A stretch of DNA of 64,000 bases from Candidatus Poribacteria bacterium (lineage in GTDB: Bacteria > Poribacteria > WGA-4E > WGA-3G). Of the stretch, positions 19,041 to 47,391 are shown in pieces (positions within the stretch are counted from its first letter, which is position 1; each line of letters opens with the position of its first letter). The position numbers and the translations under genes were made by a program. The notes beneath the pieces are model-generated. The model was not told the origin of the DNA and ran no database searches. It saw nothing but the letters and a program-made list of their open reading frames with translations. The stretch is from contig OZ241845.1 in assembly GCA_965202725.1 (NCBI GenBank), forward strand, positions 1,834,621 through 1,898,620. Reading direction: 5' to 3'.

Positions 19041-19069
19041 ATGATACGACAATTTTTTGCATAAGTCAA
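19041..19069 (-). promoter_or_regulatory. Leader promoter for array 2 (A-tract, TTGACT-N17-TATCAT, minus strand)
   Basis: The minus strand reads aaaaaaaCTTGACT tatgcaaaaaattgtcg TATCAT. The same module is present at three other sites in the island. Confidence 0.5.
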
Positions 19070-19124
19070 GTTTTTTTCACGCTAACCGCGAACCTTAGAA
19101 ATAGTTAGGGCTTACGCGGGCTGC

Positions 19125-19250
19125 TCTGTTGTAGCATAACCTGTTAGGTTGTGTGGATAGGCTGCTTGTGTTTTTTCACACATCACCACATCCTATTCAT
19201 AGTTAGCCTCATGCGGGCTGCTCTGTCGTAGCATAACTTGTTAGGGTGTG
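19125..19250. repeat. Two diverged copies of the dispersed hairpin repeat between the arrays
   Basis: 'gtagcataacctgttaggttgtg' and 'gtagcataacttgttagggtgtg', each preceded by 'ttagggcttacgcgggctgctctgtt'. Confidence 0.55.
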
Positions 19251-19420
19251 CCTACAGAATGCAGGTGCGCTTTCACAAGATTTTGACGAAAGCCAAGACA
19301 ATCAGCCCGCCGCTTAACGTTAGGTTTCCGGACTTCACTGTTTTTAAAATCCACGACGGGGGCATCTGGGGCAATTTCCTATATTTATACCCCCGAATCA
19401 CCATATAGATACCAAAGTTG

Positions 19421-19490
19421 CAAGTTGGGAGATATCCTACATACCCACAACAACTTGCAAACTTTAGACACTTCAAAACTTTCCACACGC
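19421..19490. repeat. 70-bp array-trailer element (copy directly after the last repeat of array 1)
   Basis: Near-identical to 18612-18680. Inverted repeat agttgcaagtt / aacttgcaaact. Confidence 0.6.
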
Positions 19491-22400
19491 GTTTCAATTC
19501 CCTTCGAGCGGGAAAGTCTATTCAAAGGTAGTGATTGGCTGTGGTGATGAAGATATGATGGACAAAAAAGTTTTAATTCCCTTCGAGCGGGAAAGTCTAT
19601 TCAAAGGGAGCAGTGACATGTTTCTCTTCGCAGAGTGAGGCAGAGTTCCAATTCCCTTCGAGCGGGAAAGTCTATTCAAAGTAATCATCGCCATGGTCGT
19701 AGTAATGGGAGCTGTGGTAGATGTTTCAATTCCCTTCGAGCGGGAAAGTCTATTCAAAGAAGTACCACTCGAGGTACTCAGAGTGGCAACTTTCTGTGTT
19801 TCAATTCCCTTCGAGCGGGAAAGTCTATTCAAAGATATTGGAAACAAGGTTGGTGGGACTCGAGTCTAAGGAAACCTGGTTTCAATTCCCTTCGAGCGGG
19901 AAAGTCTATTCAAAGACTGGTTGCGGTGATGAGGATATCGACGGACAAAAAAGTTTTAATTCCCTTCGAGCGGGAAAGTCTATTCAAAGGCACTTGCTCT
20001 TTCCGGAGCCTGTGGTGGTTGATGGCAAGATGTGTTTCAATTCCCTTCGAGCGGGAAAGTCTATTCAAAGAGGTTGTGGTGAAGGAATTGAAACCCCCGT
20101 CTCTGTGTTTCAATTCCCCTCGAGCGGGAAAGTCTATTCAAAGATATTGGAAACAAGGTTGGTGGGACTCGAGTCTAAGGAAACCTGGTTTCAATTCCCT
20201 TCGAGCGGGAAAGTCTATTCAAAGTGGTCGTAGTAGTTGGTTGCGGTGATGAGGATCTAAACTTGTTTTAATTCCCTTCGAGCGGGAAAGTCTATTCAAA
20301 GGTTGATATAAATTATACTACATCATCAGTAAAAAGTCAAGTGGTTTCAATTCCCTTCGAGCGGGAAAGTCTATTCAAAGACCTCGGTTACGTCTCCTAC
20401 AGCAAAAACTACCGCCTCGGTTCCGGAGTTTCAATTCCCTTCGAGCGGGAAAGTCTATTCAAAGACAAAACATACAGTTCAACGACAATCGGGGCGCTGA
20501 ATATGTGTTTCAATTCCCTTCGAGCGGGAAAGTCTATTCAAAGAGGTTCAACTGGAAGCAATAGCCAGGATTATTGTTTCAATTCCCTTCGAGCGGGAAA
20601 GTCTATTCAAAGGCGGGTTAAGCCTCGGTATAACGGCGGGTCTTGTTTCCATTCCCTTCGAGCGGGAAAGTCTATTCAAAGTAAAAAAGGCCCCGCTAGG
20701 AGAAAAGAATTGTTGAAAAAGGTTTCAATTCCCTTCGAGCGGGAAAGTCTATTCAAAGGCGTTGGGACCAGATCATGTCAAAGAGATTGGCATGATCGGT
20801 TTCAATTCCCTTCGAGCGGGAAAGTCTATTCAAAGTATCATCCACCAGGGGAACTCGAATACATCCCCTTTTAGTTTCAATTCCCTTCGAGCGGGAAAGT
20901 CTATTCAAAGTTGGGACCAGATCATGTCAAAGAGATTGGCATGATCGGGTTTCAATTCCCTTCGAGCGGGAAAGTCTATTCAAAGGTCGAGACCGATTGC
21001 CAAAACCTGATCTCCTCTTTAGTTTCAATTCCCTTCGAGCGGGAAAGTCTATTCAAAGAAGGCAAGGGGGACACGGCTGTTGCCGTGCGTTTCAATTCCC
21101 TTCGAGCGGGAAAGTCTATTCAAAGGAAAAATTGAAACAGACGACCTCTCGCGGCGCCAGATTCGTTTCAATTCCCTTCGAGCGGGAAAGTCTATTCAAA
21201 GCATTCTCCAATCCAAAGTTCCCTATTGCGGCACTGGCAGTGTTTCAATTCCCTTCGAGCGGGAAAGTCTATTCAAAGCGCAAGGAGAAAAATTGAAACA
21301 GACGACCTCTCACGTTTCAATTCCCTTCGAGCGGGAAAGTCTATTCAAAGTTGAGAAGGTTGGGTGGGTGAGTCCTTAGCGGTACGTGTAGCGTTTCAAT
21401 TCCCTTCGAGCGGGAAAGTCTATTCAAAGACACCTCACGAAAACGAATTCTGCCACTGCTTTGTAGGTTTCAATTCCCTTCGAGCGGGAAAGTCTATTCA
21501 AAGTTAAGAAATACCACTTAGGGTGCGAAAACGGGCTCTACTAGTTTCAATTCCCTTCGAGCGGGAAAGTCTATTCAAAGTTTCTGATGAAGGAGAGGCT
21601 CAAAGAGATCCCACTCTGATGTTTCAATTCCCTTCGAGCGGGAAAGTCTATTCAAAGGAGGTCCGCGAGGATGCGGCAACCTTAGATCATGAGGTTTTGT
21701 TTCAATTCCCTTCGAGCGGGAAAGTCTATTCAAAGGGGGGAAGAGGAAACGTGCTGGAGATAAGCACACGCTCGTTTCAATTCCCTTCGAGCGGGAAAGT
21801 CTATTCAAAGGGGGGAAGAGGAAACGTGCTGGAGATAAGCACACGCTCGTTTCAATTCCCTTCGAGCGGGAAAGTCTATTCAAAGTGGACTCGTAATCGC
21901 CAAGCATATAGGAATTACACGTTTCAATTCCCTTCGAGCGGGAAAGTCTATTCAAAGTAGAATGCTTGTGTTTTCTGTGGTAGGCGGGACAGTTTCAATT
22001 CCCTTCAAGCGGGAAAGTCTATTCAAAGTCTGCACTGCGAAAAGAACCTCATCCAGGGGATAACAACGTTTCAATTCCCTTCGAGCGGGAAAGTCTATTC
22101 AAAGCAGAGGTTTTTCCGATTATGTCGCACACCGAGTGGTGCGAGTTTCAATTCCCTTCGAGCGGGAAAGTCTATTCAAAGTCTCTTACACCGCAGCGGT
22201 GAAAGAGATACAAGAGCTGCTAGAGAAGTTTCAATTCCCTTCGAGCGGGAAAGTCTATTCAAAGGATTTTTCGCTGGTCTCAAAGATGGCGGGAAACGGC
22301 ATGCGTTTCAATTCCCTTCGAGCGGGAAAGTCTATTCAAAGTTGAGTGGGTGGGGGAGATGCCCACTGAGGTGGGGGAGTTTCAATTCCCTTCGAGCGGG

Positions 22401-23962
22401 AAAGTCTATTCAAAGAAGGTTCAAAAAAATAAAAAAAAAGAGACCTGAGTAAGTGTTTCAATTCCCTTCGAGCGGGAAAGTCTATTCAAAGGAAACCAAA
22501 AGTGTTATCAAAGCGCGGGGGACGCCGGGTTGTTTCAATTCCCTTCGAGCGGGAAAGTCTATTCAAAGATTCAGGTCCAGTCTCAGCGGATACCAGGGCG
22601 CAAGGTGTTTCAATTCCCTTCGAGCGGGAAAGTCTATTCATCCCCATTCCGGAAGACTGGAAATCCCCATTCCGGAGATATGACTGGGAGCGCGATATTC
22701 TCGTGTTTCAATTCCCTTCGAGCGGGAAAGTCTATTCAAAGAAAATCATGAGGATGAAAATAATCGATGGTACGTTGTACCAGTTTCAATTCCCTTCGAG
22801 CGGGAAAGTCTATTCAAAGTTGTACACGAAAATAGCACGAGATTGGATCAAGGCGAAACGTTTCAATTCCCTTCGAGCGGGAAAGTCTATTCAAAGCACT
22901 AGGAGGAGAATTGAAAAAGATCTCATGTGGTGGCGTGTTTCAATTCCCTTCGAGCGGGAAAGTCTATTCAAAGTTCCTTGAGAAGAAGGTTGGGCAGGTT
23001 TTTTGCAGGTTTCAATTCCCTTCGAGCGGGAAAGTCTATTCAAAGTACAGAATAAAAATGAAAACCATCGATGGTACCTTGTACCATCCGTTTCAATTCC
23101 CTTCGAGCGGGAAAGTCTATTCAAAGGAGTGGGTGGGAGAGATGCCCACTGAGGTGAGGAATACCGAGGGTTTCAATTCCCTTCGAGCGGGAAAGTCTAT
23201 TCAAAGTGTCGGCACAAGGAAACTGGGTGTGGATGCCGTTAGTTTCAATTCCCTTCGAGCGGGAAAGTCTATTCAAAGACTTCTGGGAGTGGGCGGAACG
23301 GGTATGCACAACCAAACCAGAGTTTCAATTCCCTTCGAGCGGGAAAGTCTATTCAAAGGAGGAGGTTGTAATGACCATCAAAGAGGATTACAGGTTTCAA
23401 TTCCCTTCGAGCGGGAAAGTCTATTCAAAGGTTAGGTCTTTCACAGTTTTCACAGCATGGGCTCCACTGTTTCAATTCCCTTCGAGCGGGAAAGTCTATT
23501 CAAAGTAGTTACACAACTCTCAACAAGGGAGACCTGGGCATGTCTCGTTTCAATTCCCTTCGAGCGGGAAAGTCTATTCAAAGAGGTTGCCTCTGAGGAG
23601 ACTGATGAGATTGCTCTCGAAAGTTTCAATTCCCTTCGAGCGGGAAAGTCTATTCAAAGTGTCAATGAGTTAACCTTCGAGGAATTCACCAGGAAGTTTC
23701 AATTCCCTTCGAGCGGGAAAGTCTATTCAAAGGAATTGGGAAAAGAGAAGTCCAAAACTATTGTCAACAGTTTCAATTCCCTTCGAGCGGGAAAGTCTAT
23801 TCAAAGGAGTAAGAAAAGAGAGAAAGGCTTGCCACCCATAAAATGTTTCAATTCCCTTCGAGCGGGAAAGTCTATTCAAAGGTCTGAGGAAAGAATTCGC
23901 AAAGAAGAAATCAGAGCGAAAAATCGTTTCAATTCCCTTCGAGCGGGAAAGTCTATTCAAAG
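19491..23962 (-). CRISPR. CRISPR array 1: 59 repeats (37 nt; GTTTCAATTCCCTTCGAGCGGGAAAGTCTATTCAAAG on the plus strand) and 58 spacers of 35-50 nt
   Basis: Repeat starts were counted by hand at a period of about 74-78 bp. A few variant repeats occur (20107 cccct, 20645 gtttcc, 21992 ttcaag, and 22607 3'-degenerate). The transcribed orientation is inferred to be the minus strand: the reverse complement ends in ATTGAAAC after a TTCCC/GGGAA hairpin, the leader promoter is at 24196-24224, and the degenerate array lies at the low-coordinate side. Confidence 0.95.
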
Positions 23963-24195
23963 AGTCCCCATTTTAAGCCCAGTGAGGCCGTGGCTCCATA
24001 CACCCCAAACCAAACGAGAACTGCGCGGGGCTTTTTTCTTCCTAAAATTTACCCCCTAAAATCCCACGAACCCTTGTAAACATTGACCCAAACGGGAATG
24101 TTTAACAAAAAAACGTTTGAAGCAAGACATCATATGGGTTCCCGGTGATTTAAAACGCATTTGCACCCGATTGGAGAATCACGTTTGTATTTATA

Positions 24196-24224
24196 AGTAT
24201 ACCCTAAATTGGCGCATAAGTCAA
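24196..24224 (-). promoter_or_regulatory. Leader promoter for array 1 (A8, TTGACT-N17-TATACT, minus strand); leader runs about 23963-24188
   Basis: The minus strand reads aaaaaaaatTTGACT tatgcgccaatttaggg TATACT. It lies about 225 nt upstream of the first repeat. Confidence 0.55.
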
Positions 24225-24289
24225 ATTTTTTTTAAAGTAGGGGCATTTATAGTAGATGTCGGAATTTAGGGCTTACGCAGGCTGATCTT

Positions 24290-24760
24290 TTGTAGCACAT
24301 CCCCTTGTTTGCGGGGAGCAGGGGGGTTATGCATGCAGAACCCCTCGCCTGCGAGGCGCTGGGGCTATAAAGGAGGCACAGCTTAACAGGAAACTATGCT
24401 ACAAAGGAAGAAGACACAGCCTAACAGGCTATGCTACGAATACTGCACAGCCTAACAAATCAATTTGCCCCTGAGCTATCCCCTGCGGACTAGCCTAACA
24501 GGTTATGCTACAACTTAAAACACAGCCTAACAGGCTATGCTACAACTTAAAACACAGCCTAACAGGCTATGCTACGAATACTGCACAGCCTAACAGGCTA
24601 TGCTACGAATACTGCACAGCCTAACAGGCTATGCTACAAAAGACACAGACACAGCCTAACAAGCTATGGTACAGATGCACAGCCTAACAGGAAACTATGG
24701 TACAAAGAAGAAGCCCCCCGCTTGCGGGGGGGCCTTCCCCTTGCTTGCGGAGGCGTGGAC
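24290..24760. repeat. Repeat cluster between the array 1 leader and cas1
   Basis: About nine copies of CACAGCCTAACAGGCTATGCTAC, spaced 30-40 bp apart. They are flanked by GC-rich hairpins ('ccccttgtttgcggggagcagggggg' and 'gccccccgcttgcgggggggc ... ccccttgcttgcgg'). Confidence 0.8.
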
Positions 24761-24763: not shown

Positions 24764-25756
24764 TTAGGCACGAATGAGGAAGGATTTGTATGCTGGCTCT
24801 TCACCTGTCACCACGCGAGCCAGATGCCTGACCTGTAGCTCAATCGAGCGGAGATAGGTCGTTTTCTCGTTGCGCGTCGGGTGTTGGAACGTCTGCTGCA
24901 TCCGCCCATGGTACCCTTTAAGGAATCGATCCAAAGCTGCCTTGGTGAAACGGATACCTTTGTTCGTCTGCTCGAAATCTTCCGGTTGCACTCGCTTGTG
25001 ATTGACAAGCGATAACACGTATCCATCTACAATAATCTGACGGAACTCTTCCATCAGGTCCGAGGCGAGGGCTGCATGTCCGTGCTTGGGTTGATGAAAG
25101 TAGCCGCAGTATGGATCGAACCCGACGACATGGGTGAAAGTGTAAACGTGGTTGTGTAAGAGGGTATAGCCGAGTGAAAGCATCGCGTTAATTGGGTCAG
25201 GTGGTGGTCGGAATTGTCGCGTTGTGAAGCCCCACTCGTGGCGTAGCAATTGTCGGAATGCCCGATAATAGGCGGCTGCGCCGGCCCCTTCGTATCCGAG
25301 CAGGGATTCCAAATTCTTCGCGCGGTCAAGTTTTTGCACGGTTTGCCGCACAGAACTGATTGCTGACTTAACCTCGGCGGTTTGGGTGCGTTGGCGTTGG
25401 CAAAATCGGGCAGCGTTTGTGAGTTTACCGCGAATAAAACATTTCGCCAACCCCAGGCAATACTTTGAATCTGCAGCAAGGGTGTACTGTTGTCGTCGAA
25501 TGCGTGTATCTTTGGCATAAGCCGGTTGGAGTTTCCCCTTGTATGTCCCCCGTGAGGAGAGAAAGGAGACGGGTATGTTTTTATCGAGCAGGTATCCCAT
25601 CGTCGGTGTTGTGATGTGTCCGTTGCCGAAAATGACGACCTCATCGAGCTGGACGATTGGGATTTCTTGAAGGACTTCGCGTTCTTTTTTTACGATAACT
25701 TGGTTGCCGGATTTGTGGAGCATTGCGCCTTGTTGGGTGATGTAAAGGATTGCCAT
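24764..25756 (-). CDS. cas1: CRISPR-associated endonuclease Cas1
   Basis: 330 aa. Typical N-terminal 'LYITQQGAMLHKSGNQVIV' and the conserved 'GFDPYxGxxH' acidic/His block. The gene sits next to the array leader. Confidence 0.9.
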   Translation of the reverse strand: MAILYITQQGAMLHKSGNQVIVKKEREVLQEIPIVQLDEVVIFGNGHITTPTMGYLLDKNIPVSFLSSRGTYKGKLQPAYAKDTRIRRQQYTLAADSKYCLGLAKCFIRGKLTNAARFCQRQRTQTAEVKSAISSVRQTVQKLDRAKNLESLLGYEGAGAAAYYRAFRQLLRHEWGFTTRQFRPPPDPINAMLSLGYTLLHNHVYTFTHVVGFDPYCGYFHQPKHGHAALASDLMEEFRQIIVDGYVLSLVNHKRVQPEDFEQTNKGIRFTKAALDRFLKGYHGRMQQTFQHPTRNEKTTYLRSIELQVRHLARVVTGEEPAYKSFLIRA

Positions 25757-25799: not shown

Positions 25800-25975
25800 T
25801 ACACAGGTTTTTAGCATCCCCCCTGCTTGCGGGGGGGCAGGGGGGGTCTCCCCTTGCTTGCGGGCTGCAGGTTTTTAGCATCCCCCCTGCTTGCGGGGGG
25901 CAGGGGGGGGGTATCCCCTTACTTGCGGGGAGGCGGTTGTGCCACAGCAGATGCACAGCCTAACAGGCTATGCTA
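25800..25975. repeat. GC-rich hairpin repeats and one dispersed-repeat copy between cas1 and the RT gene
   Basis: A direct duplication of about 65 bp. Each copy contains 'tttttagcatcccccctgcttgcgggggggcagggggg', an inverted repeat cccccctgc / gcagggggg. Then comes 'cacagcctaacaggctatgctac'. Confidence 0.7.
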
Positions 25976-27355
25976 CGAATGTTTTAAACGTTTGCTAAAT
26001 CGTGTGGCGATGTTTTTGCCTCGCTGTGTTACAAGTTTGCCTGAGCGTACGACGTGTGATGTGCCGTTTTTCAGGGCTTGCTGGATGTGGTTTTGTAAGC
26101 CCGCTGCCCGTGAGTCGGGAACGGGTCGGTAGCAGCCGTCGCTATCAAAGATGTGTCCGAGGAATTCAACCCCGGTGTCGAAGTGCGCGATTTGGGTCTT
26201 TTTGGGATTGACAGCTAACTTCAGCCGCCCGAGGTGTTTCTGGGCGTACTCACAGGCGTGCTGTGCTCTGCCTTCACTTCGGCAAAGGAGGAGCAGGTCG
26301 TCTGCGTATCGGACGAGCCGCATTCCTGATCGCGTCATCGCCTTATCGAACGGATGCAGATAGATATTCGCGAACAGGGGCGAGAGGGGCGAGCCTTGGA
26401 GAATTCCGATTTTCCGAGGACGGTTCATCCGCTCCTTCACGATGCTGCCTACAGTCGGTGCAGCCAGTGCAGCGACTACCAACGGGGCAGCGATGAGCAG
26501 GTGCTTCGCTGCAAGCGGTTTCCACAACCGTTTGGCGTTGGCAAGGAGTAGCAGCAGCCCATCTCTCCCTAAGTTCGTCAACAGCTCTTTTCCTGTTGGG
26601 GTTAAGTGACCATCCGTTGTGGCAATTTCGGATGCGTCAACATCCCAGTCGTCTTCTGTAAGTGCGTTCTCATATTCGCTATAATGCCCAGCATCTGGCG
26701 TGCGATGCAGTATTTGGTTAATCACGTTCTCAACACCTTCACCGATATGATGCACCGTGTTTTCGAGATGCGTGCCCCATGTCGGGAATTTGGGGGGTTG
26801 TAGAACGCCGCCCATATCCAGCCACATCTGGATGAGCCGAATAATCGCGGGTTCTTTCAGGGATGCCCGCAGAAACCGCATCAGGATGTGCGTATCCATT
26901 TCATCAAAGAAGTTCTCAATATCGGCATGAACGACCCATTCGTAGCCTTCTGATCGGATCGCGGCGACTTGCGCGATTGCATGCGGCACCCCACGGTTGG
27001 GGCGATACGCGAAACTACACGCCAGAAATTTTGCCTCGTAGATCGGTGAGATGAGATCACAAACGGCACGCTGCACAATCCGATCTTTTAAGGTTAGCAC
27101 TGAGAGTTCTCGCGTACTCCCGTTGGATTTCTGCAGTGTGAATTTTTGAACAGGGAGTGGGTAATACCGCTCTTCGGCAAGCTCACGTGAGAGTTGACGG
27201 AGATGTTTCGCGAGGTTTGCCTCGAACTGTTGAAGGGTGACACCATCGCTACCGGGACCGCTCTTGTTGCTGCGGACCTTCCGCCATGCGGCATGTAGGG
27301 TTTCGGGTTGACAGAGTTGTGTGGAGAGTGAAATACTTGGTGTACAATTAAGCAC
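25973..27355 (-). CDS. Stand-alone CRISPR-associated reverse transcriptase (group-II-intron-like RT)
   Basis: RT domain 0 'LHAAWRKVRSNKSGPGSDGVT', domain 2 'FAYRPNRGVPHA', and YADD box 'LVRYADDLLLLC'. A large insertion separates the fingers from the palm. Start assigned to GTG at 27355 with AGGAGG 6 nt upstream. The ORF tool's extra 11 N-terminal codons would be encoded by the RBS. Confidence 0.85.
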   Translation of the reverse strand: MLNCTPSISLSTQLCQPETLHAAWRKVRSNKSGPGSDGVTLQQFEANLAKHLRQLSRELAEERYYPLPVQKFTLQKSNGSTRELSVLTLKDRIVQRAVCDLISPIYEAKFLACSFAYRPNRGVPHAIAQVAAIRSEGYEWVVHADIENFFDEMDTHILMRFLRASLKEPAIIRLIQMWLDMGGVLQPPKFPTWGTHLENTVHHIGEGVENVINQILHRTPDAGHYSEYENALTEDDWDVDASEIATTDGHLTPTGKELLTNLGRDGLLLLLANAKRLWKPLAAKHLLIAAPLVVAALAAPTVGSIVKERMNRPRKIGILQGSPLSPLFANIYLHPFDKAMTRSGMRLVRYADDLLLLCRSEGRAQHACEYAQKHLGRLKLAVNPKKTQIAHFDTGVEFLGHIFDSDGCYRPVPDSRAAGLQNHIQQALKNGTSHVVRSGKLVTQRGKNIATRFSKRLKHS

Positions 27356-27394
27356 GAATGTCCTCCTGGTTATTACAGGCAACGGCACGGGCTC

Positions 27395-28690
27395 CTGATA
27401 GGAAACTATGCTATAGCAGATGCACAGCCTAACAGGAAAACACGCTACAAAAAGACACAGACACAGCCTAACAAGCTATGCTACAGAAGATGCACAGCCT
27501 AACAGGCTATGCTACGAAATAGGTTATGCTACGAAATAGGTTATGCTATAGAAGTGGCACAGCCTGACAGGCTATGCTACGAAATAGGCTATGGTACAGA
27601 AGAGTGACCTGTGTGAATTAAGTGGAACTGTTTTGGGATGATTGAAAAAGGTACATGACATTGATTAGACGTTTGTATAGAGTCTGCAAGGAATGAAAAG
27701 GATAGTAAAAAATTTAAAAGGATGGTAGCATAGCCTGTTAGGCTGTGCCTTAGGATGTCCTGGTAGCATAGCCTGTTAGGCTGTGCCTTAGTTGTAGCAT
27801 AGTTTGTTGTAGCATAGCCTGTTAGGCTGTGTCTTAGCCCGTCAGCTGAGTGTGTATTTTTTCGTAGCATAGCCTGTTAGGCTGTGTCTTAGGATGTCCT
27901 GGTAGCATAGCCTGTTAGGCTGTGTCTTAGCCCGTCAGCTGAGTGTGTATTTTTTCGTAGCATAGCCTGTTAGGCTGTGTCTTAGGATGTCCTGGTAGCA
28001 TAGCCTGTTAGGCTGTGCCTTAGCCCGTCAGCTGAGTGTGTATTTTTTCGTAGCATAGCCTGTTAGGCTGTGTCTTAGGATGTCCTGGTAGCATAGCCTG
28101 TTAGGCTGTGTCTTAGCCCGTCAGCTGAGTGTGTATTTTTTCGTAGCATAGCCTGTTAGGCTGTGTCTTAGGATGTCCTGGTAGCATAGCCTGTTAGGCT
28201 GTGCCTTAGGATGTCCTGGTAGCATAGCCTGTTAGGCTGTGTCTTAGGATGTCCTGGTAGCATAGCCTGTTAGGCTGTGTCTTAGGATGTCCTGGTAGCA
28301 TAGCCTGTTAGGCTGTGCCTTAGTTGTAGCATAGTTTGTTGTAGCCTGGTTTCCTGTTAGGCTGTGCCTTAGCTCGTCAGCTGAGTGTGTATTTTTTCGT
28401 AGCATAGCCTGTTAGGCTGTGTCTTAGGATGTCCTGGTAGCATAGCCTATTAGGCTGTGCCTTAGTTGTAGCATAGTTTGTTGTAGCATAGCCTGTTAGG
28501 CTGTGCCTTAGGATGTCCTGGTAGCATAGCCTGTTAGGCTGTGTCTTTTTGTAGCCTAGTTTCCTGTCAGGCTCTGCCTTAGCCCGACTGCTTTAACGGA
28601 TCACATCTCATTAAGACAAGTCTTGTGATTAAGACCGTGATGCACAGCCTGACAGGCTATGCTACGAAACAGGCCATGCTACAACAGAGG
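27395..28690. repeat. Large tandem cluster of the dispersed hairpin repeat (about 35 copies) between the RT and SWIM genes
   Basis: 27395-27610 is in CACAGCCTAACAGGCTATGCTAC orientation. 27720-28690 is in the opposite orientation, with perfect 38-bp periodic units 'ggtagcatagcctgttaggctgtgtcttaggatgtcct' and about 80-bp higher-order units. The linkers are themselves repeated, so this is not a CRISPR array. Confidence 0.85.
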
Positions 28691-30163: not shown

Positions 30164-30164
30164 A

Positions 30165-30440
30165 TCAAACGACAATTGTTTGCGGAGCTGAGGTCACTTC
30201 ACCGACAGCAGGCACTTCCACGCGCCCGGCGCAATTACCACAGAACGTGTAGTAGCGAACTGAATCTTCAGCAAGATCAATAACACGCGCAACGGCATTC
30301 TTAAGTGCCTCATACTGTCTCCGGTTGAGATGTGCTTCAAATACGCTGTACTGGACACGCGTGCCGAACCCTTTAAGCACTTTTGCGAGTCGGTTGCGCC
30401 TGTGATCGTCAGGAATATCGTAAGTGATGACATAGAGCAT
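30165..30440 (-). CDS. cas2: CRISPR-associated endoribonuclease Cas2
   Basis: '[35 protein letters not shown]' is a canonical Cas2 N-terminus. Start placed at the second Met (ATG at 30440) with GGAGGT 7 nt upstream. The first Met of the ORF overlaps the promoter -10 element. Confidence 0.85.
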
Positions 30441-30465
30441 CAATTTACCTCCAGTTTGGTTTATA

Positions 30466-35285: not shown

Positions 35286-35293
35286 AGTGTTGT

Positions 35294-36469: not shown

Positions 36470-36526
36470 CTCTTAGACGGTGTATGTAAATCGGTAGCGT
36501 GCGAATCTGAAGTTTTGAAGCATCAT
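36470..36526 (-). pseudogene. Second duplicated cas6 5' fragment (17 codons then stop)
   Basis: Encodes 'MMLQNFRFARYRFTYTV*'. It overlaps the csx1 stop in an ATGA context and matches the cas6 5' end for about 55 nt. Confidence 0.5.
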
Positions 36527-38814: not shown

Positions 38815-39732
38815 TCAATAAAGTCCAGATGGGCAGTTTCTATCATTCGGGTAGCGGAGAATTTCAGCAAGCTTTTTCAATAGATCTATTTTGATGAGAG
38901 ATCCCATTGCTGCTTCTATGCATTTGCTTTTCCATTTCCTCAATTGTGCACCTGTCTTTGCCGATTTCGGCTGAACGTTCCAGTCTAAATACTTTTGCTG
39001 GTTTTGTTTTTCAACCTGAACCTCATCAATATCAATATCGATTGAACCGAAGCATACAGGCTTCGCACCGCCAATTTTGAGTTTAAATGGATAATCAGAA
39101 TTGTGTCCCAACGCCGTTAAAAACAAACCCCACTCTGCTTGGGTTAGGTTGTCAACCTGCACGACAAACTGAAATTTTGAATCTTCCTCCCATGCTTCAA
39201 CGGGGGTTTTACCCGTAGCCACCTCCCCGTGCTTGTAAAATTTTCGTCCTTGCTGTCGACGCGGCTTATAAAGCTCAGGGACATATTTCGTTACAATTTG
39301 TCCTTTAATTAGTGGAGCATCCTGTATTGCAATATTGGATTGAAAACCCATAGCCCCAAACATACGGCAGGAAACACACAGTTTACCTCCTGGACGACAT
39401 TCCGATGAACGGGTATTACAGATGCAGCTTTCCGAAATTGCCTCAACAACGCTCCGAATAGCACCTTTAAGTGAGCTACCGGGGATAAGGGCATTTCTAT
39501 CCGTTCGGACTGCTGTTTTGATAAGTTCTTCATTCTGATCGATATCAATAACGCCGCTGCCAATATAGATGGGGGATAATGCCTTTATTCTTCCAATGAC
39601 CTTACCTGTTGTATATGTATTTGTCTGGCGGTAGCTATCATGTCCGATTGGAGATTCTCTATTAACCCCCTGTGGAAGCGGAACAAAGTCGAAAGGTTTT
39701 AGTGCAGCCTGTTTGGGTTGAGATTGACCCAT
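38815..39732 (-). CDS. RAMP (Cas7 group, Csm5/Cmr6-like) subunit
   Basis: 'ALIPGSSLKGAIRSVVEAIS' G-rich RAMP loop, a C4 zinc-finger-like 'CICN...C...CVSC', and C-terminal 'GGAKPVCFGSIDI'. Confidence 0.7.
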   Translation of the reverse strand: MGQSQPKQAALKPFDFVPLPQGVNRESPIGHDSYRQTNTYTTGKVIGRIKALSPIYIGSGVIDIDQNEELIKTAVRTDRNALIPGSSLKGAIRSVVEAISESCICNTRSSECRPGGKLCVSCRMFGAMGFQSNIAIQDAPLIKGQIVTKYVPELYKPRRQQGRKFYKHGEVATGKTPVEAWEEDSKFQFVVQVDNLTQAEWGLFLTALGHNSDYPFKLKIGGAKPVCFGSIDIDIDEVQVEKQNQQKYLDWNVQPKSAKTGAQLRKWKSKCIEAAMGSLIKIDLLKKLAEILRYPNDRNCPSGLY

Positions 39733-39744
39733 GATTCTTGCTCC

Positions 39745-40230
39745 TTACTTTCTTACAAAAGCCATGTATCGCGTAAAACGAATAGTATGAGAAATGCTTT
39801 CTTTATACTGAATTATATTGATTTTTGGAGATTGGCACCATTTCATTGGATATTTAAGTTTTCGCGGGATTCGCGTATCTCGCCATGGTTTAGTTTCACC
39901 ACCACCGAGTAAGGATACTGCCTGTGGTTCGCTTGTTGCCCATTCACCCAATGTGGTAAATTCTGCTGGCAAATCTCCCTCAGACAACCAGAGTAGTGCG
40001 TAACCGATTGACTGCTTTCGCCAGCGGAGTTCCCCGTTTTTGTCAAATATTCTGCCCCATGTATACTCTTCTATTTCTTTTGCGTCTGGTGTTCCTTTTT
40101 TCCAATCGGTGATTTTATCCGGACTTTGGAGTAAGTAATAGGAAGGATCACCGAATTCTAGATCTTTAATTCGTTGTGTAAATTCCAAAATATTAGACGC
40201 TTGTGCGGTTGCAACAATCGCTTTTCCCAC
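39745..40230 (-). CDS. Small uncharacterised protein (161 aa) at the position occupied by Csx19 in III-D loci
   Basis: No motifs recognised. Trp-rich. Embedded between two Cas7 genes with 1-nt and 13-nt gaps. Confidence 0.35.
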   Translation of the reverse strand: MGKAIVATAQASNILEFTQRIKDLEFGDPSYYLLQSPDKITDWKKGTPDAKEIEEYTWGRIFDKNGELRWRKQSIGYALLWLSEGDLPAEFTTLGEWATSEPQAVSLLGGGETKPWRDTRIPRKLKYPMKWCQSPKINIIQYKESISHTIRFTRYMAFVRK

Positions 40231-41151
40231 TTACTCACCCCCTTCGACCATTTCGCGCCATGAACAGACACAGCCTTGCCATAGTGCGATGATTTCGTCC
40301 GGTGATTTAAGGTTTAGTGTAGCACCTAGTCCGTAATCATCTTGTTGTGCTTGTACACTTACATCGACGGAATCAGGATTAGGAAATCCATAATTGCATG
40401 CGTTATCCACAAGTTGTCCTGCGCCCACAACGATCTTGTCTTTAAATGATGTAGTTTGTCCTACAAATTTCAATTGCTTATTTTCAACAATCGCTGTTGG
40501 GTATCGAATTTCAACGCTGCTGACTTTCATGTTTACCTGTCCTAAGCCGCGTGATTTTGCGTAACCGAGACCTACCCGTTGTTCGTCAAAGTCACGGACG
40601 GCAAGTGCAATAAGTCCAAGCTGAGCTGTTGTAAAGTTCTTCAGAGTGATTTTCGTTCTAAACTCGCCTGAAATGATAACTTCAAAGTTGAACGGACCAA
40701 AGGCAACAGAACCAAAGAGCCTGTTGATCGCAACACCATTACGTTCTTCTCGACGAATTCCTTTCGGATCGATAGGATATGCATCGGCAATACGCGCATG
40801 CGCTGAAATTTTTGTACTGCCAAAGATTTGGCAAACCGTGCAGGTATTTTGGTAAAGGGCGGCACTGTCTTCTGCTTTTAAATTTCTACATAGCGAGTCA
40901 TCTTTCAACGGATCACATGTGGTGACATTCCCTCCGAGTGTCCGCACAATCCGCTCACAATGTGCACGAATCGCCCCTTTCAGTGAGGAGCCCGGAAGAT
41001 AAACGCTTCTATCCCCAGCATGATAGGTTTCAACGAACTCCATATCTGGTTTGGTCGGGTCTGCCCCTTGGTCGCTCGCTTTGATGAGCAGCGGTCCGAC
41101 AGGAGAGATCACTAATTCAATGATGGCTTGGTTGACAATCCGTTTGTGCAT
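40231..41151 (-). CDS. RAMP Cas7 (Csm3/Cmr4-like) subunit
   Basis: 'VYLPGSSLKGAIRAH', a zinc-finger-like 'C...C...CTVCQIFGS', and a G-rich loop 'GYAKSRGLGQV'. Confidence 0.75.
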   Translation of the reverse strand: MHKRIVNQAIIELVISPVGPLLIKASDQGADPTKPDMEFVETYHAGDRSVYLPGSSLKGAIRAHCERIVRTLGGNVTTCDPLKDDSLCRNLKAEDSAALYQNTCTVCQIFGSTKISAHARIADAYPIDPKGIRREERNGVAINRLFGSVAFGPFNFEVIISGEFRTKITLKNFTTAQLGLIALAVRDFDEQRVGLGYAKSRGLGQVNMKVSSVEIRYPTAIVENKQLKFVGQTTSFKDKIVVGAGQLVDNACNYGFPNPDSVDVSVQAQQDDYGLGATLNLKSPDEIIALWQGCVCSWREMVEGGE

Positions 41152-41987
41152 TAACTCCCCTCCGATTGCTGTTTAACTTTGTCGTGGAACGCATCTACCC
41201 ACGATTCCCAATTAGCATTGACTCCCATACAGTCTTTGGTCAGATAGTCTATGATATTAGAACCATCAATATAGGCTGTGGTATTAAGTGATAATTCGAT
41301 TTGTCCCAACCCGCGGCTACTTCCGCCGCCAATGGTCAATTCACCCTTCTCAAAAGCAGAAAGACCGAGGTAAAGCATACCGAGCTGCCAATCTGCAGCG
41401 TTGTCAACAATTGCATGAAAATTGAATACAACTTCTGCCGGAACGACTTCAAAATCGTAGAGTTTGCCATCTGAGGCTGTTTCTGTGTCCCGATCAATTG
41501 CAACACCGTCGCGTTGCTGATATTGATCGAACCAGAGATCCTGTTGCACATGCAAATCACGAATTTGCAACTTAGAAGCATACCACAACGATCCGAAGAG
41601 TTGACATACCCAACAAGTATACCCAAGAATTTTTTTGCTAAATTCTTGGTCTGTCCATTTATGCCGTTCCCGAGGATTTTTAAGGCCTCCCTCTCGTGAC
41701 TTTCGCAAACTTTGCATATCACTGCGGTTGATACACTGTCCGCCCTCATCAATAGGGTTACAAACCATGTGCTTGTCGTCTTTAAAGCTTCTCATTATAC
41801 TTTCAATGTAAGACCGGAGAACACCTTTGAAACTTGAGCCAGGTATGTAAGGGCGGTTTGCTGCGTCCCGCACGACAGGAAGATCGGAACTAATAGGTGA
41901 TGTGGAACGCCCCGCACCGATGCGAATTGCAGTTAACGTTTCAACCTCGCCCTCCAAAATGAGCCGGGATTGGAATTTATCAAACAT
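41151..41987 (-). CDS. csm3: RAMP Cas7 (Csm3-like backbone subunit)
   Basis: 'PYIPGSSFKGVLRSYIE', 'CWVCQLFGS', and 'GGGSSRGLGQIEL'. A conserved Asp ('SSDLPV') lies in the loop where the Csm3/Cmr4 catalytic Asp is found. Confidence 0.8.
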   Translation of the reverse strand: MFDKFQSRLILEGEVETLTAIRIGAGRSTSPISSDLPVVRDAANRPYIPGSSFKGVLRSYIESIMRSFKDDKHMVCNPIDEGGQCINRSDMQSLRKSREGGLKNPRERHKWTDQEFSKKILGYTCWVCQLFGSLWYASKLQIRDLHVQQDLWFDQYQQRDGVAIDRDTETASDGKLYDFEVVPAEVVFNFHAIVDNAADWQLGMLYLGLSAFEKGELTIGGGSSRGLGQIELSLNTTAYIDGSNIIDYLTKDCMGVNANWESWVDAFHDKVKQQSEGS

Positions 41988-42469
41988 TAGTTGTTACTCC
42001 CTTTGTATGCCAGAAAAGCTTGATACCGAGCAAGATTGCCTAAGTAAAGCTGCATCAAACGAACGTGAACGCTTTGAATATCTTCTGTCGTTGGATCTTC
42101 ACAGATAGATTGGACAAGATATTCAGCATTTTGAGCTAAGGCCTCAATCTCTTGAACTAATGCCACAGCGAAACTTTCTTTTTTACTTGCCTTGTCACCT
42201 TTACTTCCCTTGTACTTCCACATCGGATTTGAACCCTTCCGACCGAGTTGATAACGGATGTAATTCTTGGTTATTTCGATACCACTTCCAGATTCTGTGG
42301 CAACATTTAGCACATTGCGAAGTGGCGATTTCTGTGGAACATTGCCAAGATTATACCTATCCGCGAATTTCCGCATCTCCGGTATAAGTGTTTCCATCTG
42401 TTTACCTATTTTCTGCTCAACCTTTAAATTTTTCTGTTTTTCAGTGATAGCTCGTTCTGTTTGACTCAT
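41987..42469 (-). CDS. Type III small subunit (Cas11; Csm2/Cmr5-like)
   Basis: 160-aa helical protein, basic, located directly after the Cas7-Cas5 gene with overlapping stop and start. Assigned by size, position and composition only. Confidence 0.5.
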   Translation of the reverse strand: MSQTERAITEKQKNLKVEQKIGKQMETLIPEMRKFADRYNLGNVPQKSPLRNVLNVATESGSGIEITKNYIRYQLGRKGSNPMWKYKGSKGDKASKKESFAVALVQEIEALAQNAEYLVQSICEDPTTEDIQSVHVRLMQLYLGNLARYQAFLAYKGSNN

Positions 42470-44328
42470 CGTGTTTCCTCCTCATTTTGCAGCCAAGCGC
42501 CTTCTGATTTAACCTGCCCTCGTGACCGAAGATGGAACGCGTCGCAAATCGTTATCTGCCCGAAACCTTCTTCACGCCGATCGCCGATGCCGTTATTTTC
42601 GAGTGTCTGCAAGGCAGAAATCCACGCCTTAATATCAGGTGTATGAAAAACAAAGACGCTTCCCATTTTCGTGACAAGGTCCGTCTCTTTCGGTACCCCC
42701 CATGCCGCATTCCACCCACCAACATAATCGTAACTCGCAAAACTTCGGATGAAGGTCACTTCAGTCCCACAACCTGTCATCTGCTTAAGCATCGGAGCGG
42801 TGATAACCATGCTCCGCTGCCACCCATCTTCTGCTGTGAGAATCGCGTCGGATTGCAAGTTCACACTAAAATAAATGCCATCAAACGCACCTATTCCAAC
42901 GTTTGATAGCTGGAAATAGTTATTCCAAGTTTCTTGTAAAGCACAGTTAAATTTATCGATGCGTTGTTTCAATGTATCCTGCACTTCATATTTTTCCACT
43001 TTCAAACTAACTTTCCCAAGTCCGCGTGAACTTCCGCCTCCCAATCGTTTAACCTTTTTCTGTAACGTGTCGGCTACTTTATTCGTTAGGGCTGATGGAA
43101 CTTTCATTGTACCTTGCAAGTATACCTCTTTTCCATCAGTAGACAACGGGTCAACTGCTGTCAAATGGTAGAGTAACTCATCTTCAGCAACTTTACGCTG
43201 CCGGTTGATGGCAACGCGTGTGAGCAATCGCGTGTTAAGAGTATTTTTCGTATAAACACCGTTGGATTCTGTATAGAATCCGCTTTGTGATTCAACACGT
43301 TCCAAACAATGTGGGCAGTTTGGTTGATACATCTGATCTGCCTTTTCAGAAACGATTTTTTCAAAAAGTGTGTCGAAAATTCCGTGTTTATCTTTATCTT
43401 TTCCTCTCAGGAACCCAGAGAAATCCTTGCATCCCACAGCGGTTGCAGGTAACACATTAGCCCCCGGGGTGCAGTTCCGAAAGATACAAGCCTCGTCATT
43501 AAGGAACAGTTGGGTGAATTCATCATCAGGTTTACGATTTTCTAAATTAGATAATAACACATTTGCTAAAGCCCCACGTATTAACCCACCGCGAATATAA
43601 TTGACTGCCTCAACTGCCTGTCCTGCTGGTTTACGTCCACCTGTAATGATGGGTGATTCCAACGTAACATGAATTAATAACTCGGTGGATTCCTCTGAAT
43701 TGATTTCTATTGACTGAAGCTCTTGTGTAGTGGGTGTAATTTCTTTATGTTCAATTTTTAACCACCCGATTCCACGGGTTTTGCCTGAGCCGATGGCGTG
43801 AATGTATTTAAGTCCAGCGGATAGTAGTTTAATGTGATTATCTGTAATACTATTACTGATTGTTACATCCCCGGAAAATTCAAATCCAGCGTTAGAGAGG
43901 CTTGTCTCAGTGAAATAGAGACGTTGATCTTCTCCGACTCGCCTGCTGCGATTGATGGTGACTCCGCTTCGGATTTCCGTTGATTCTATTCCCAAATCGC
44001 TTTCCGGTGTGAGATCGCTAATAAATATCCTTGATTCCAATGTCGGTGAACCGAAAATTTGGCAAATAATGCAGTGATTGTCAACACACATATTCTCGGC
44101 ACGCGGACTATTACAAACGGAGTGATTTTCCATCCTGGGTGCAAGGACCTCACACGCGTGCCTCCAGATACCTTTAAGCGTTGAGGCAGGGATATATAGT
44201 TTGCCATCACGGGTCTTGACCGTTGACTTGTCTGCACCTATTTCACTACCACCGCTGTCACCGATGCACAGTGCTGTATCAACTGTTGTTGTAATCCGCC
44301 ACTGTTTTTCAGTCGTTGAATTCGTCAC
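42466..44328 (-). CDS. Large two-RAMP protein, probable Cas7-Cas5 (Csx10/Csm4-like) fusion
   Basis: 620 aa. The first RAMP has 'LYIPASTLKGIWRH', a C-rich thumb and 'CQIFGS'. The second RAMP starts around residue 215 ('YIRGGLIRGALANV'). C-terminal G-rich loop 'GGGSSRGLGKVSL'. Confidence 0.6.
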   Translation of the reverse strand: MTNSTTEKQWRITTTVDTALCIGDSGGSEIGADKSTVKTRDGKLYIPASTLKGIWRHACEVLAPRMENHSVCNSPRAENMCVDNHCIICQIFGSPTLESRIFISDLTPESDLGIESTEIRSGVTINRSRRVGEDQRLYFTETSLSNAGFEFSGDVTISNSITDNHIKLLSAGLKYIHAIGSGKTRGIGWLKIEHKEITPTTQELQSIEINSEESTELLIHVTLESPIITGGRKPAGQAVEAVNYIRGGLIRGALANVLLSNLENRKPDDEFTQLFLNDEACIFRNCTPGANVLPATAVGCKDFSGFLRGKDKDKHGIFDTLFEKIVSEKADQMYQPNCPHCLERVESQSGFYTESNGVYTKNTLNTRLLTRVAINRQRKVAEDELLYHLTAVDPLSTDGKEVYLQGTMKVPSALTNKVADTLQKKVKRLGGGSSRGLGKVSLKVEKYEVQDTLKQRIDKFNCALQETWNNYFQLSNVGIGAFDGIYFSVNLQSDAILTAEDGWQRSMVITAPMLKQMTGCGTEVTFIRSFASYDYVGGWNAAWGVPKETDLVTKMGSVFVFHTPDIKAWISALQTLENNGIGDRREEGFGQITICDAFHLRSRGQVKSEGAWLQNEEETR

Positions 44329-46888
44329 TTATATCTTCCTCGTTTTGGTCTTCAGGTTCAGGGATAAAATCATAAGCCTCAATTATATCGAAAATTAATG
44401 TTTCATACTCGGCTTCACCGGTTCGGTGTTCCACCGGTATCGTGTACCAAGGTCCCTGACCGTTCACGCTATGGGAAACACTTTGCCAATTATGTTCAAT
44501 TTGCTCCTGAAGCAGTTCGCCTTTTCCGTCTCCAAGACGACTTCGGAAGTAGAGGTAATCGAGCGTTGATGTTGATCTACCAAGTTCAATCGACTGCCGA
44601 AGTTGGTAGAGTTGTGAACGTGGGAACTCATCTTTTTTGAACGCTTGAATGGTGTGAATGAACCTCGAAAGTTCGTGCAATGTGAAAGGACGCATGGTTA
44701 ACACATTCTGTTCATCTGTTTTGTAAAATTTTTTGCGGAAATCGCCAAGTTCACTTGAAATCATTGAAAGCGACTTTAGCACGAGGAAATCAACCGTTCC
44801 ACCGAGATAAGCGACATCTGGCTTCTTTAACGTCTTTGCTCTGGCTTTTGCTGTTCTGAGTAAGCTACCGGCGAGATGCTCTAAAAATCCAACCGGTGTA
44901 TGTCCTTCAGCAATGACGAAACCCAATGAGAGACTAAATACTGGTTGCATATTCTGCTCATCTATCCATTCGCTTCGCGCGTAACGCTGAGATTTACGTA
45001 GTTTATCTTTTTCTGTAAATTTTGAGTAACTGTTAAATTCCTGATCGAAGTTTTTCCCAATAGCATGAACGACATCAAACGCCGCGCTACCCGGCACGAT
45101 GAGCAACAAATCATCTCCACCAATACTGATGATTTCAAATGGCAGGACTCCGTCATCGTTAGGTTTAAGATAGACAGCAAGTGCATCAAACGCTGCTTTT
45201 TGAAGTGCAATAAAAACACGTTCAGAAAACTGTCTATACTGCGCGGGAGTTTCAATGTTTTCCAAATATCCCCCCATGTTGTTACCATCAGCATAGATGA
45301 ACGTGATAAAACCTTTAGGATTACTTGTGTCAGCGATGTCTTCAAGGTCTTGAGGACCTCCCACATCTTCAAAAGGCTGGTCTTTGGTAAAATATTGATT
45401 CGCCTTAGCAGTTGCCTTCAAATAACTTTTGAATAGCGAACTCCAATCATTAAGATACCATCCTCCGTTTTCCTTTTGGGTCGCAGGTTGCCAACCGGAA
45501 AGTTGATCCAAATAGTGACTAATACTGCCCTGTTCCTTTGATTTATCATTTTCCTTTTTTGTGATACGCCCAACAACATATTTCCGTATGCATGCTTCAC
45601 AAATGTTTCGTGGATTGTTGATGATTGCGGGTCGCCGTTCGCAACTTTCACATCGGAGTTGATACGGACCGATTTCTACGTGTGTTGGTAGGTCGCGCCG
45701 TGATGTCCTGTTTGGTGCTGGATTCCCTTCTCGGCGACGCATCTGTTCTTGTGCCAACTTTGTTGTTAGCTCGCCGAAACATTTTCTATTGAAAAAATCG
45801 GCCTCAGTATCGCCATAATAGTTTGTCATCAGTTCTTTATTTTTTCCGTGCGCACACGTTTTACGGAAATCTTCCACCCAAAAATGTGTAGGATTGAGTC
45901 CATACTGTAACTCTAGTAGATCGAATGTATCGCCTACTGCTACACTGTTTGCGACAAGTGTTTCTTTGGTGTAAATCCGTTCAATTTCGTCTGCGATGTG
46001 GTAAACAATAGAAGCCGGTGTGAATGCCAGCGTATTGCCACCTGCAGCGTAGATGATGCATTCTGGCGAGTTGATCGTATGTCCTATCCGATCGCTAAAT
46101 TCTTTTCGGATGCGATCCGATTGCTTTTTATCATAGGGTTTCCGGCCGAATAGGGCAGGGACATATTCAAGATTAATGCGGTCAAGTAAGGCACTTGCGC
46201 CGCGAATCTCTGGAAGCTTGGAAGATTCAAGGAAGTAACCTTTGATCTTCGTCGCTCCACCTAACACAAGTCCGATCTGTTGTTTCTGATTCGGATCGTT
46301 CGGGTTGAGAGAATGCGTGCCGAATTGTCCTTTCTCGCCAATTGTTTCTCGATCAGAAGCGGCCGTTTTTGCCAGATATACGATGCGTTCAAGGTTGTTT
46401 CCATCTGCTTTAGGTTCAATCGGTGTGTTTCCAATCCACAATGCCTTGTAAACCTCGCCCATACCATCGCCTTGCCAAGTTGCGGTCATAGCAGAAAGAC
46501 GGAGTTTATCCAATGTTTCATCATTAGGGCGGGTATCTTCATCGTAACCAAGACAGTATGCTATTGCTGATGCGGTTAGGGAATGATCAGCAATGGTTGC
46601 TCCTGGGAGTGAAGGACAAGGCAGCCATCGAAACAGATGTTTGCCGTTTTTCCCTTGCCAGAGTTCTTGGATCTGTGGAAGCAGTAAGTCAAGAATACAA
46701 GAGACACGATCCGCTATGGGGAGATCCGCGCAGTCACCGATGTGTTCGACAGTCTGTTGAATTGTAGCATCCCAATCCTCCTCTGTGATACCAAACTCAT
46801 CTTCAAGAATCGGATCTTTCCAACTCGGATCTTTCCAACAGTGATGCCGGTCTTCAATCTGTTTACCTATTTTCCAGTCTCGTGTCAT
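44309..46888 (-). CDS. cas10: Cas10 (Csm1/Cmr2-type large subunit) with GGDD cyclase palm; no recognisable HD motif
   Basis: 859 aa. 'EIISIGGDDLLLIVPGS' is the GGDD palm. Treble-clef zinc finger 'CESCERRPAIINNPRNICEACIRK'. Degenerate first palm 'IIYAAGGNTLAFTP'. The N-terminal 200 aa lack an HD dyad. Confidence 0.85.
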   Translation of the reverse strand: MTRDWKIGKQIEDRHHCWKDPSWKDPILEDEFGITEEDWDATIQQTVEHIGDCADLPIADRVSCILDLLLPQIQELWQGKNGKHLFRWLPCPSLPGATIADHSLTASAIAYCLGYDEDTRPNDETLDKLRLSAMTATWQGDGMGEVYKALWIGNTPIEPKADGNNLERIVYLAKTAASDRETIGEKGQFGTHSLNPNDPNQKQQIGLVLGGATKIKGYFLESSKLPEIRGASALLDRINLEYVPALFGRKPYDKKQSDRIRKEFSDRIGHTINSPECIIYAAGGNTLAFTPASIVYHIADEIERIYTKETLVANSVAVGDTFDLLELQYGLNPTHFWVEDFRKTCAHGKNKELMTNYYGDTEADFFNRKCFGELTTKLAQEQMRRREGNPAPNRTSRRDLPTHVEIGPYQLRCESCERRPAIINNPRNICEACIRKYVVGRITKKENDKSKEQGSISHYLDQLSGWQPATQKENGGWYLNDWSSLFKSYLKATAKANQYFTKDQPFEDVGGPQDLEDIADTSNPKGFITFIYADGNNMGGYLENIETPAQYRQFSERVFIALQKAAFDALAVYLKPNDDGVLPFEIISIGGDDLLLIVPGSAAFDVVHAIGKNFDQEFNSYSKFTEKDKLRKSQRYARSEWIDEQNMQPVFSLSLGFVIAEGHTPVGFLEHLAGSLLRTAKARAKTLKKPDVAYLGGTVDFLVLKSLSMISSELGDFRKKFYKTDEQNVLTMRPFTLHELSRFIHTIQAFKKDEFPRSQLYQLRQSIELGRSTSTLDYLYFRSRLGDGKGELLQEQIEHNWQSVSHSVNGQGPWYTIPVEHRTGEAEYETLIFDIIEAYDFIPEPEDQNEEDISDEFND

Positions 46889-47362
46889 ACGCTTCCCCCT
46901 CAGATAGTTTGGTAACAGGAAACCAATGGTCTCCTATGTGACAGAAGATGTTTACTTATTTCTCGCGTTTACTGTAGTTATTATAGGTTGGATTTATTTA
47001 TTTTTCAACAAAAAAATGAGCAAAATCTATAGCTAATTACAGAATTATACAATATTTAAAAAAAAAAAAGCAAATTGTACTGGAAATTAATCAATCAAAT
47101 CGCCAACTGCATAGTTGGGACCATGACAGATTGTGACAACGTACTTGTTCAGTTTCGGGTCGAAGCATGCAACTGCCTCAAATAGGTGCGACACTTTGTG
47201 TGCCACAATAATCCGAAAATATCTCCGCCGCGACAATCAGTTCAAGTTTGTGTGCGAATTTTCTCCACAGTTGCATCCGAACATTCGAGTCCTCTTTGCT
47301 TTCTGGCCGGTAACGAAAGTAGCCAAACGCGATTTGAGAACATATCGGTCTTGTCTCCGAAA

Positions 47363-47391
47363 AGTATAGCTGAAATTGAAAAGAAAGTCAA
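47363..47391 (-). promoter_or_regulatory. cas10 operon promoter (A8, TTGACT-N17-TATACT, minus strand)
   Basis: The minus strand reads aaaaaaaaCTTGACT ttcttttcaatttcagc TATACT. It lies about 470 nt upstream of the cas10 ATG. It is preceded on the transcript side by a GC hairpin element (47425-47455) that separates it from the Rieske gene. Confidence 0.5.

Follow-up and report, generated by a model that had tools for sequence, protein, structure and literature searches.

Probable copies of a CRISPR leader 5' end, carrying a predicted sigma70-type promoter, at four sites of a type III-D CRISPR-Cas locus in Poribacteria

We analyzed a CRISPR-Cas locus in a 64,000-nt stretch of contig OZ241845.1, in ENA ERZ26693861 ctg138209, from a Candidatus Poribacteria bacterium, hereafter called the window, together with four promoter-like sites that lie upstream of its arrays and cas genes. 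The locus consists of a type III-D effector, an adaptation module of reverse transcriptase (RT), Cas1 and Cas2-SWIM, and two CRISPR arrays. The homologs of its Cas1, Cas2 and Cas10 proteins all came from metagenome-assembled genomes of Candidatus Poribacteria, which are sponge symbionts. A cyanobacterial source, suggested at first sight by the repeat type and the hairpin repeats, was rejected on this ground. Unless noted otherwise, the features described here lie on the minus strand. The type III-D effector operon begins with cas10 (44309-46888) and continues to ~38170; the type III-D RAMP genes, Csx10 and Csx19 among them, occupy 38815-44328. Csm6 (36523-37974), additional CARF proteins (33994-36391) and cas6 (32928-33935) lie beyond, and the gene of a pyridoxal phosphate (PLP)-dependent decarboxylase lies on the plus strand (31101-32732). 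The adaptation genes are cas2 (30165-30440; 91 amino acids [aa]), a SWIM-domain gene (28694-30163), the RT gene (25973-27388) and cas1 (24764-25756), with cas2 and the adjoining SWIM-domain gene forming an apparent single operon (28694-30440). Array 1 (19491-23962) contains ~60 repeats of 37 nt with the minus-strand repeat CTTTGAATAGACTTTCCCGCTCGAAGGGAATTGAAAC, and array 2 (18542-18872) contains 4 degenerate repeats. On the minus strand the repeats have ATTGAAAC at their end, and the far end of the array holds degenerate repeats. An Rfam scan of the window returned three tRNAs only, with no match in the leaders or in the region upstream of cas10.

An earlier note on this DNA had described four minus-strand sites of one architecture, and all four are present as described. 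Their numbers and what lies downstream are as follows: site 1 for array 2 (19069-19041, TTGACT-17-TATCAT), site 2 for array 1 (24224-24196, TTGACT-17-TATACT), site 3 for cas2 (30494-30466, TTGACT-17-TATGCT) and site 4 for the region upstream of cas10 (47391-47363, TTGACT-17-TATACT). The -35 hexamer TTGACT matches the sigma70 consensus at five of six positions at every site, the -10 hexamers match at four to five of six, each with A at position 2 and T at position 6, and the spacer is exactly 17 nt throughout, within the 17 ± 1 nt of sigma70 promoters. An A-run of seven to eight nucleotides, which the note had placed before each site, does precede site 1 (A7, 19077-19071), site 2 (A8, 24233-24226) and site 4 (A8, 47400-47393), in agreement with the A/T tract of an UP element, but site 3 has A4 (30498-30495) in the window and A5-A7 in its orthologs. 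No extended -10 motif (TGn) was present at the four sites or at the alternative sites 18880-18909 and ~47040-47071.

The pattern TTGACT-N17-TATNNT occurred six times in the 64-kb window against 0.10 expected, a count reached by 0 of 100 shuffles. The two matches besides the four sites lie before a FIST-domain gene (7292-7264) and within a spacer of array 1 (20340-20312). When sites with at least 10 of 12 consensus positions and a 17-nt spacer were counted, 10 were found against 3.0 ± 1.7 expected, and adding at least six A in the 10 nt upstream left only sites 1, 2 and 4, three sites of the CRISPR-Cas locus where 0.04 were expected. The earlier note had held that a similar density of the module in intergenic DNA outside CRISPR loci would count against its proposal. 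In 289 kb of Poribacteria DNA, 16 of 18 A-rich modules stood at CRISPR contexts, namely leaders (12), cas2 (3) and cas10 (1), so in the DNA covered no such density was seen.

Sites 1 and 2 lie within CRISPR leaders, as each stands by the first repeat of its array, on the side that agrees with the repeat orientation, and the two leaders align over ~270 nt. The predicted promoter of the array-1 leader spans 24196-24233, with TTGACT at 24224-24219 and TATACT at 24201-24196, and its predicted transcription start site (TSS) falls at ~24189. The predicted transcribed leader (23963-24195, ~227 nt) is conserved over its whole length in relatives. Because cas1 is followed by a GC-rich hairpin, the leader appears to be transcribed as a unit of its own. 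The array-2 leader promoter (19041-19077) is a paralog of the array-1 promoter. Array 2, its leader and its trailer copy form a partial duplicate of array 1 (repeat families D6 and D9), the array-1 trailer copy inside array 2 (18611-18680) being 91% identical to 19416-19485. Of the array-2 leader only the 5' part remains, the conserved half next to the repeats being absent; array 2 itself is probably a duplicate in decay that has stopped taking up spacers. Sites 3 and 4 stand apart from repeats and are thus regarded as leader-derived fragments, putatively so for site 4, and not as leaders.

To compare leaders across Poribacteria, we used two sets of loci (designated L with a number). A pattern scan of GTDB representative genomes yielded 12 Poribacteria loci. 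Because the scan pattern fixed 9 of the 17 spacer positions, part of the sample from the window's subclade is biased, and a second set was fetched via Cas1 homologs of 70-86% amino-acid identity (L053-L060, L066 and L067; n = 10). In all ten of these loci, the homologous part of the leader opens with the A-tract and continues for ~270 nt up to the first repeat, with 70-79% identity over that length. All ten also retain an A-rich tract, TTGACW, a spacer of exactly 17 nt and TA[TC]A[CT]T. Among eight non-redundant leaders, mean pairwise identity was 0.27 upstream of the A-tract, which is the random level, and rose to 0.75 in the A-tract (with five invariant A columns), 0.90 in the -35 hexamer and 0.96 in the -10 hexamer; it was 0.71 in the 17-nt spacer and 0.61-0.78 in the remaining leader. 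L066, the most distant locus, has a GC-rich spacer of unrelated sequence, yet it retains the A-tract, TTGACA, the -10 hexamer and the 17-nt distance between the hexamers. Judged by sequence, this footprint fits a sigma70 promoter preceded by an UP-like A-tract and does not fit an operator in the spacer.

The copy before cas2 extends beyond promoter elements. It occupies 30453-30498 and consists of A4, TTGACT (30494-30489), the spacer TATGTGCAAATTTAGGG, TATGCT (30471-30466) and the sequence from the predicted +1 to ~+13. The leader profile aligned to 46 nt of it (30498-30453; E = 7e-8), from the A-tract through both hexamers and the spacer to ~13 nt past the -10 hexamer. Since this likeness reaches sequence that no promoter consensus requires, it points to duplication. 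The flanking block of about 40 nt that the note had reported as shared by the array-1 and cas2 copies was recovered by BLAST as 35 of 39 identical nucleotides. Its reading of the cas2 start also held: the -10 hexamer contains the first in-frame ATG (30470-30468), and the downstream Met at 30440 is the real start. That Met is preceded by the Shine-Dalgarno (SD) sequence GGAGG (30452-30448) with a 7-nt gap, and nearly all listed Cas2 homologs are 91 aa long. Site 3 stands ~19 nt upstream of this conserved SD and start codon.

The cas2 copy is confined to one sublineage. Only five genomes (the window, L058, L025, L011 and L014) were found to have it, with constant spacing to the SD and start codon, and among the ten Cas1-homolog loci just one does. 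It is absent from L053, L054, L056 and L057, in which cas2 lies downstream of cas6; from L066 and L067, in which cas2 is close downstream of cas6; and from L055 and L059, which have another promoter-like sequence, TTGACA-18-TATCCT, before cas2. Given these absences, site 3 looks like promoter capture after a rearrangement and not like a universal feature. In the genomes that conserve the upstream flank, L011 not among them, site 3 stands back to back with a divergent promoter-like site on the plus strand, TTGACT-18-TATAAT (30514-30543), which faces the decarboxylase gene and is conserved in L058, L025 and L014.

Site 4 (47363-47400) is leader-like, and its promoter consensus is intact. The note's statement that it precedes cas10 applies only loosely: it does lie upstream on the minus strand, but its -10 hexamer is 475 nt from the cas10 ATG (46888). 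No convincing open reading frame (ORF), small gene or Rfam family was found between the two. The leader profile matched site 4 with E = 4e-5, mainly through the A-tract, TTGACTT, AATTT and TATACTT. A fragment ~70 nt further upstream (47478-47511) matches leader profile positions 176-209, the AAAAATCGCGTTTG box (E = 0.036), and copies of the leader box AAATCGCGTTTG stand on both sides of site 4, the second at 47333-47305. From these matches, site 4 is probably a rearranged leader remnant with an intact promoter. Closer to the gene, TTGAAA-17-TATAAT (46980-47008; 11 of 12 consensus positions) lies 92 nt before the ATG and would be a more conventional candidate for the cas10 promoter than site 4. 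Taken over the four sites, the comparative evidence argues strongly for predicted sigma70-type promoters in the two leaders and well for one before cas2, but the assignment to cas10 is weak.

Based on these data, we favor the explanation, at a probability of about 0.72, that the 5' end of the CRISPR leader is present in related copies at the four sites; an ordinary strong promoter would have been duplicated, with no dedicated regulator taking part. The similarity among the sites extends ~15 nt past the -10 hexamer into transcribed sequence, which is why we attribute it to duplication of the leader 5' end; common descent accounts for the shared module better than a regulon operator does. The shared cassette would comprise the UP-element-like A-tract, TTGACW, the 17-nt spacer and TATACT, together with the first ~15 nt of the transcribed leader at sites 1-3. 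At sites 1 and 2, the housekeeping sigma70 holoenzyme of RNA polymerase would recognize the near-consensus hexamers while the C-terminal domain of its alpha subunit contacts the A-tract, and transcription would start ~7 nt past the -10 hexamer and read through the ~227-nt leader into the array. Site 3 would be a duplicate of ~46 nt of the cassette that gave cas2-SWIM its own promoter in one sublineage, the one in which cas2 adjoins the divergent decarboxylase gene rather than standing directly downstream of cas6. The remnant at site 4 may add read-through into cas10 and is probably not the main cas10 promoter. Any co-expression of these units would come from one common strong, probably constitutive promoter and not from a dedicated regulator.

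Several observations weigh against this explanation. The spacer TATGTGCRAATTTAGGG is nearly invariant among leader and cas2 copies of the window's subclade, whose flanks are 73-81% identical, leaving room for an extra constraint. Array 2 has a further promoter-like site beside its first repeat, TTGCAA-18-TATAAT (18880-18909), which ends 7 nt before repeat 1. The 635-nt region upstream of cas10 that includes site 4 had no counterpart in four loci fetched via Cas10 homologs, where transposases, a CARF gene or a different promoter occupy that position. Moreover, the A-tract, the hexamers and AATTT contribute most of the profile score of site 4, so this site may have arisen by convergence on the consensus of strong promoters.

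The alternative that survives best, although we regard it as unlikely, is a regulon with an operator, in which a transcription factor recognizes the 17-nt spacer TATGYGCMAATTTAGGG and co-regulates the arrays, cas2-SWIM and perhaps cas10. Within the window's subclade, 14-17 of the 17 spacer positions are identical in leader and cas2 copies of different genomes while the flanks diverge by 20-27%, and copies with the same spacer also stand before non-CRISPR genes in L003, L014 and L018; in the window itself the spacer motif occurs at sites 2 and 3 only; and the archaeal regulator Csa3a, which couples leaders and adaptation genes in Sulfolobus, offers a precedent (PMC5587795). However, part of this subclade sample was retrieved by the biased pattern described above, and across the family the spacer is no more conserved than the rest of the leader and is unrelated in L066, where the promoter elements remain. 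Sites 1 and 4 have only AATT-like bases in common with sites 2 and 3. The spacer shows no dyad symmetry beyond the trivial AAATTT and GTATAC. No helix-turn-helix, WYL or Csa3-like gene was detected in the locus, and Pfam and NCBIfam scans of the locus proteins found no DNA-binding family, with three proteins (210, 365 and 160 aa) left without annotation. The shared regulator site that the earlier note had proposed within the spacer is not borne out across the family, where spacer identity (0.71) falls within the leader baseline (0.61-0.78) and the spacer is replaced in L066; within the window's subclade the spacer is nearly invariant. As for its broader suggestion of a coordinated regulon, the module is present at the arrays and cas2, but the RT-cas1 and cas6/CARF genes have none, and site 4 is not conserved at cas10 in four relatives. 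A related reading, improbable to a similar degree, combines the two ideas: the leader cassette, from the A-tract to ~+15, would be a portable module copied to cas2-SWIM, possibly to the effector operon and to some non-CRISPR genes (L003, L014 and L018), placing them under control like that of CRISPR RNA (crRNA), with the subclade spacer TATGTGCRAATTTAGGG as the operator of a putative factor.

Slightly less probable again is that the sites are independent generic promoters, alike through the sigma70 consensus alone, with neither common descent nor a link to CRISPR. Such sites do exist in the window, where further ones with at least 10 of 12 consensus positions precede ordinary genes (451, 5009, 7292 and 13179), and the scan pattern TTGACTTATG...GTATAAT also matched 39 loci of other phyla, mostly Clostridia; much of the likeness of site 4 also lies in consensus elements. 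The leaders of sites 1 and 2 are nevertheless alignable over ~270 nt, sites 2 and 3 have in common a spacer and post -10 sequence that no consensus requires, and the version with the A-tract is restricted to the CRISPR-Cas locus in the window and almost so to CRISPR contexts in the 289 kb of relatives' DNA. On these sequence comparisons, the extended homology already refutes independent origins for sites 1-3. The last alternative, that the block is not a promoter but a DNA or RNA element such as an integration host factor docking site or part of a leader RNA structure, is very improbable: the leader is conserved over its whole length and a covarying 9-bp long-range inverted repeat begins ~9 nt after the -10 hexamer, but conservation peaks at both hexamers and their exact 17-nt spacing rather than in the spacer sequence, the block marks where leader homology begins on the 5' side, ~230 nt from the integration site, and the distance of the cas2 copy from an SD and start codon is typical of promoters.

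The preferred explanation, duplication of a leader promoter, can be set beside known systems. Pcrispr1 in the type I-E leader of Escherichia coli is an example of a CRISPR leader that bears a promoter. As in that system, the Poribacteria leader is AT-rich, lies by the first repeat, contains a sigma70-type promoter (here predicted) for precursor crRNA (pre-crRNA) and is conserved within its repeat and Cas1 family. Unlike Pcrispr1, the Poribacteria promoter stands at the extreme 5' edge of the ~270-nt leader, has a near-consensus -35 hexamer and an A-tract, and belongs to a cassette of which part was copied before cas2 and probably upstream of cas10. The UP element of rrnB P1 has a proximal subsite with the consensus AAAAAARNR at -46 to -38; similarly, all related leaders have an A-run at ~-44 to -37 directly upstream of the near-consensus -35 hexamer. 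In contrast to rrnB P1, only the proximal A-tract is evident in Poribacteria. In Sulfolobus islandicus, Csa3a activates the adaptation cas genes and the CRISPR leaders by binding defined sites, as demonstrated by electrophoretic mobility shift assays and in vivo (PMC5587795). The Poribacteria locus resembles that system in that the leader and the adaptation-gene promoter have sequence in common, which would couple the expression of crRNA and adaptation genes. It differs in that the common sequence is the core promoter and is explained by duplication, and no regulator gene was found in the locus.

For an uncultivated phylum of sponge symbionts, these results supply a well-supported predicted promoter and the predicted starts of pre-crRNA and cas2 transcription, which are useful in annotation, in the interpretation of sponge metatranscriptomes and in heterologous expression. 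Duplication of the leader 5' end would be a simple route by which cas genes gain array-like expression. This is ordinary biology with a small evolutionary twist and reveals no new regulatory mechanism.

The leader also contains an inverted repeat, formed in array 1 by CAAACGTGA (24187-24179) and TCTCGTTTG (24019-24011). The predicted leader transcript opens with CAAACGYGA, the complement of TCGCGTTTG, which lies ~50 nt upstream of repeat 1. In eight Poribacteria leaders (alignment A1, columns 3-11 with 172-180), 95.8% of the 9 bp were paired, and two pairs (three cells) were altered on both sides, a level of covariation equalled by 4 of 500 shuffles. The repeat could be the closing helix of a leader RNA or an inverted repeat at the DNA level. 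Pairing of the leader 5' end with a nearer box instead was considered and rejected, as covariation gave it no support.

Fragments of the leader also occur away from arrays. In L018 (1017-1148) and L065, a gene for a secreted protein is preceded by an orphan leader remnant ~125 nt long, and a metagenome scan with the subclade module returned one contig, arranged identically to L018. A cassette copy with a 16-nt spacer in L014 (5602-5638) precedes a 553-aa ORF that looks ATPase-like by eye, and another copy lies upstream of a non-CRISPR gene in L003 (7327-7355).

The gene neighborhood varies among relatives. A near-identical adaptation module and leader accompany a type III-B (Cmr) effector in some Poribacteria (L053, L054 and L057) and a type III-D effector in others, which suggests module shuffling. 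Among nine Cas1-homolog loci, the PLP-dependent decarboxylase gene lies within the adaptation module, by cas2, RT and cas1, in L053-L058, L066 and L067 and is absent from L059. Its orientation is opposite to that of the cas genes, and it is an unusual partner for CRISPR adaptation genes.

Some spacer-repeat units of array 1 are duplicated within the array, with 99-100% identity (19793-19915 and 20102-20224; 21699-21885). One of its spacers holds a full near-consensus promoter sequence, TTGACT-17-TATAAT (11 of 12; 20312-20340, minus strand), oriented along array transcription, which could be due to chance or to a spacer acquired from a promoter region. Short hairpin repeats resembling miniature inverted-repeat transposable elements, with the core GTAGCATAGCCTGTTAGGCTGTG, form dense families in most intergenic spaces of the locus (19100-19280, 24300-24700, 27400-28600, 30600-31000 and 48330-48480) and give rise to spurious ORFs, such as the one at 30521-31045.

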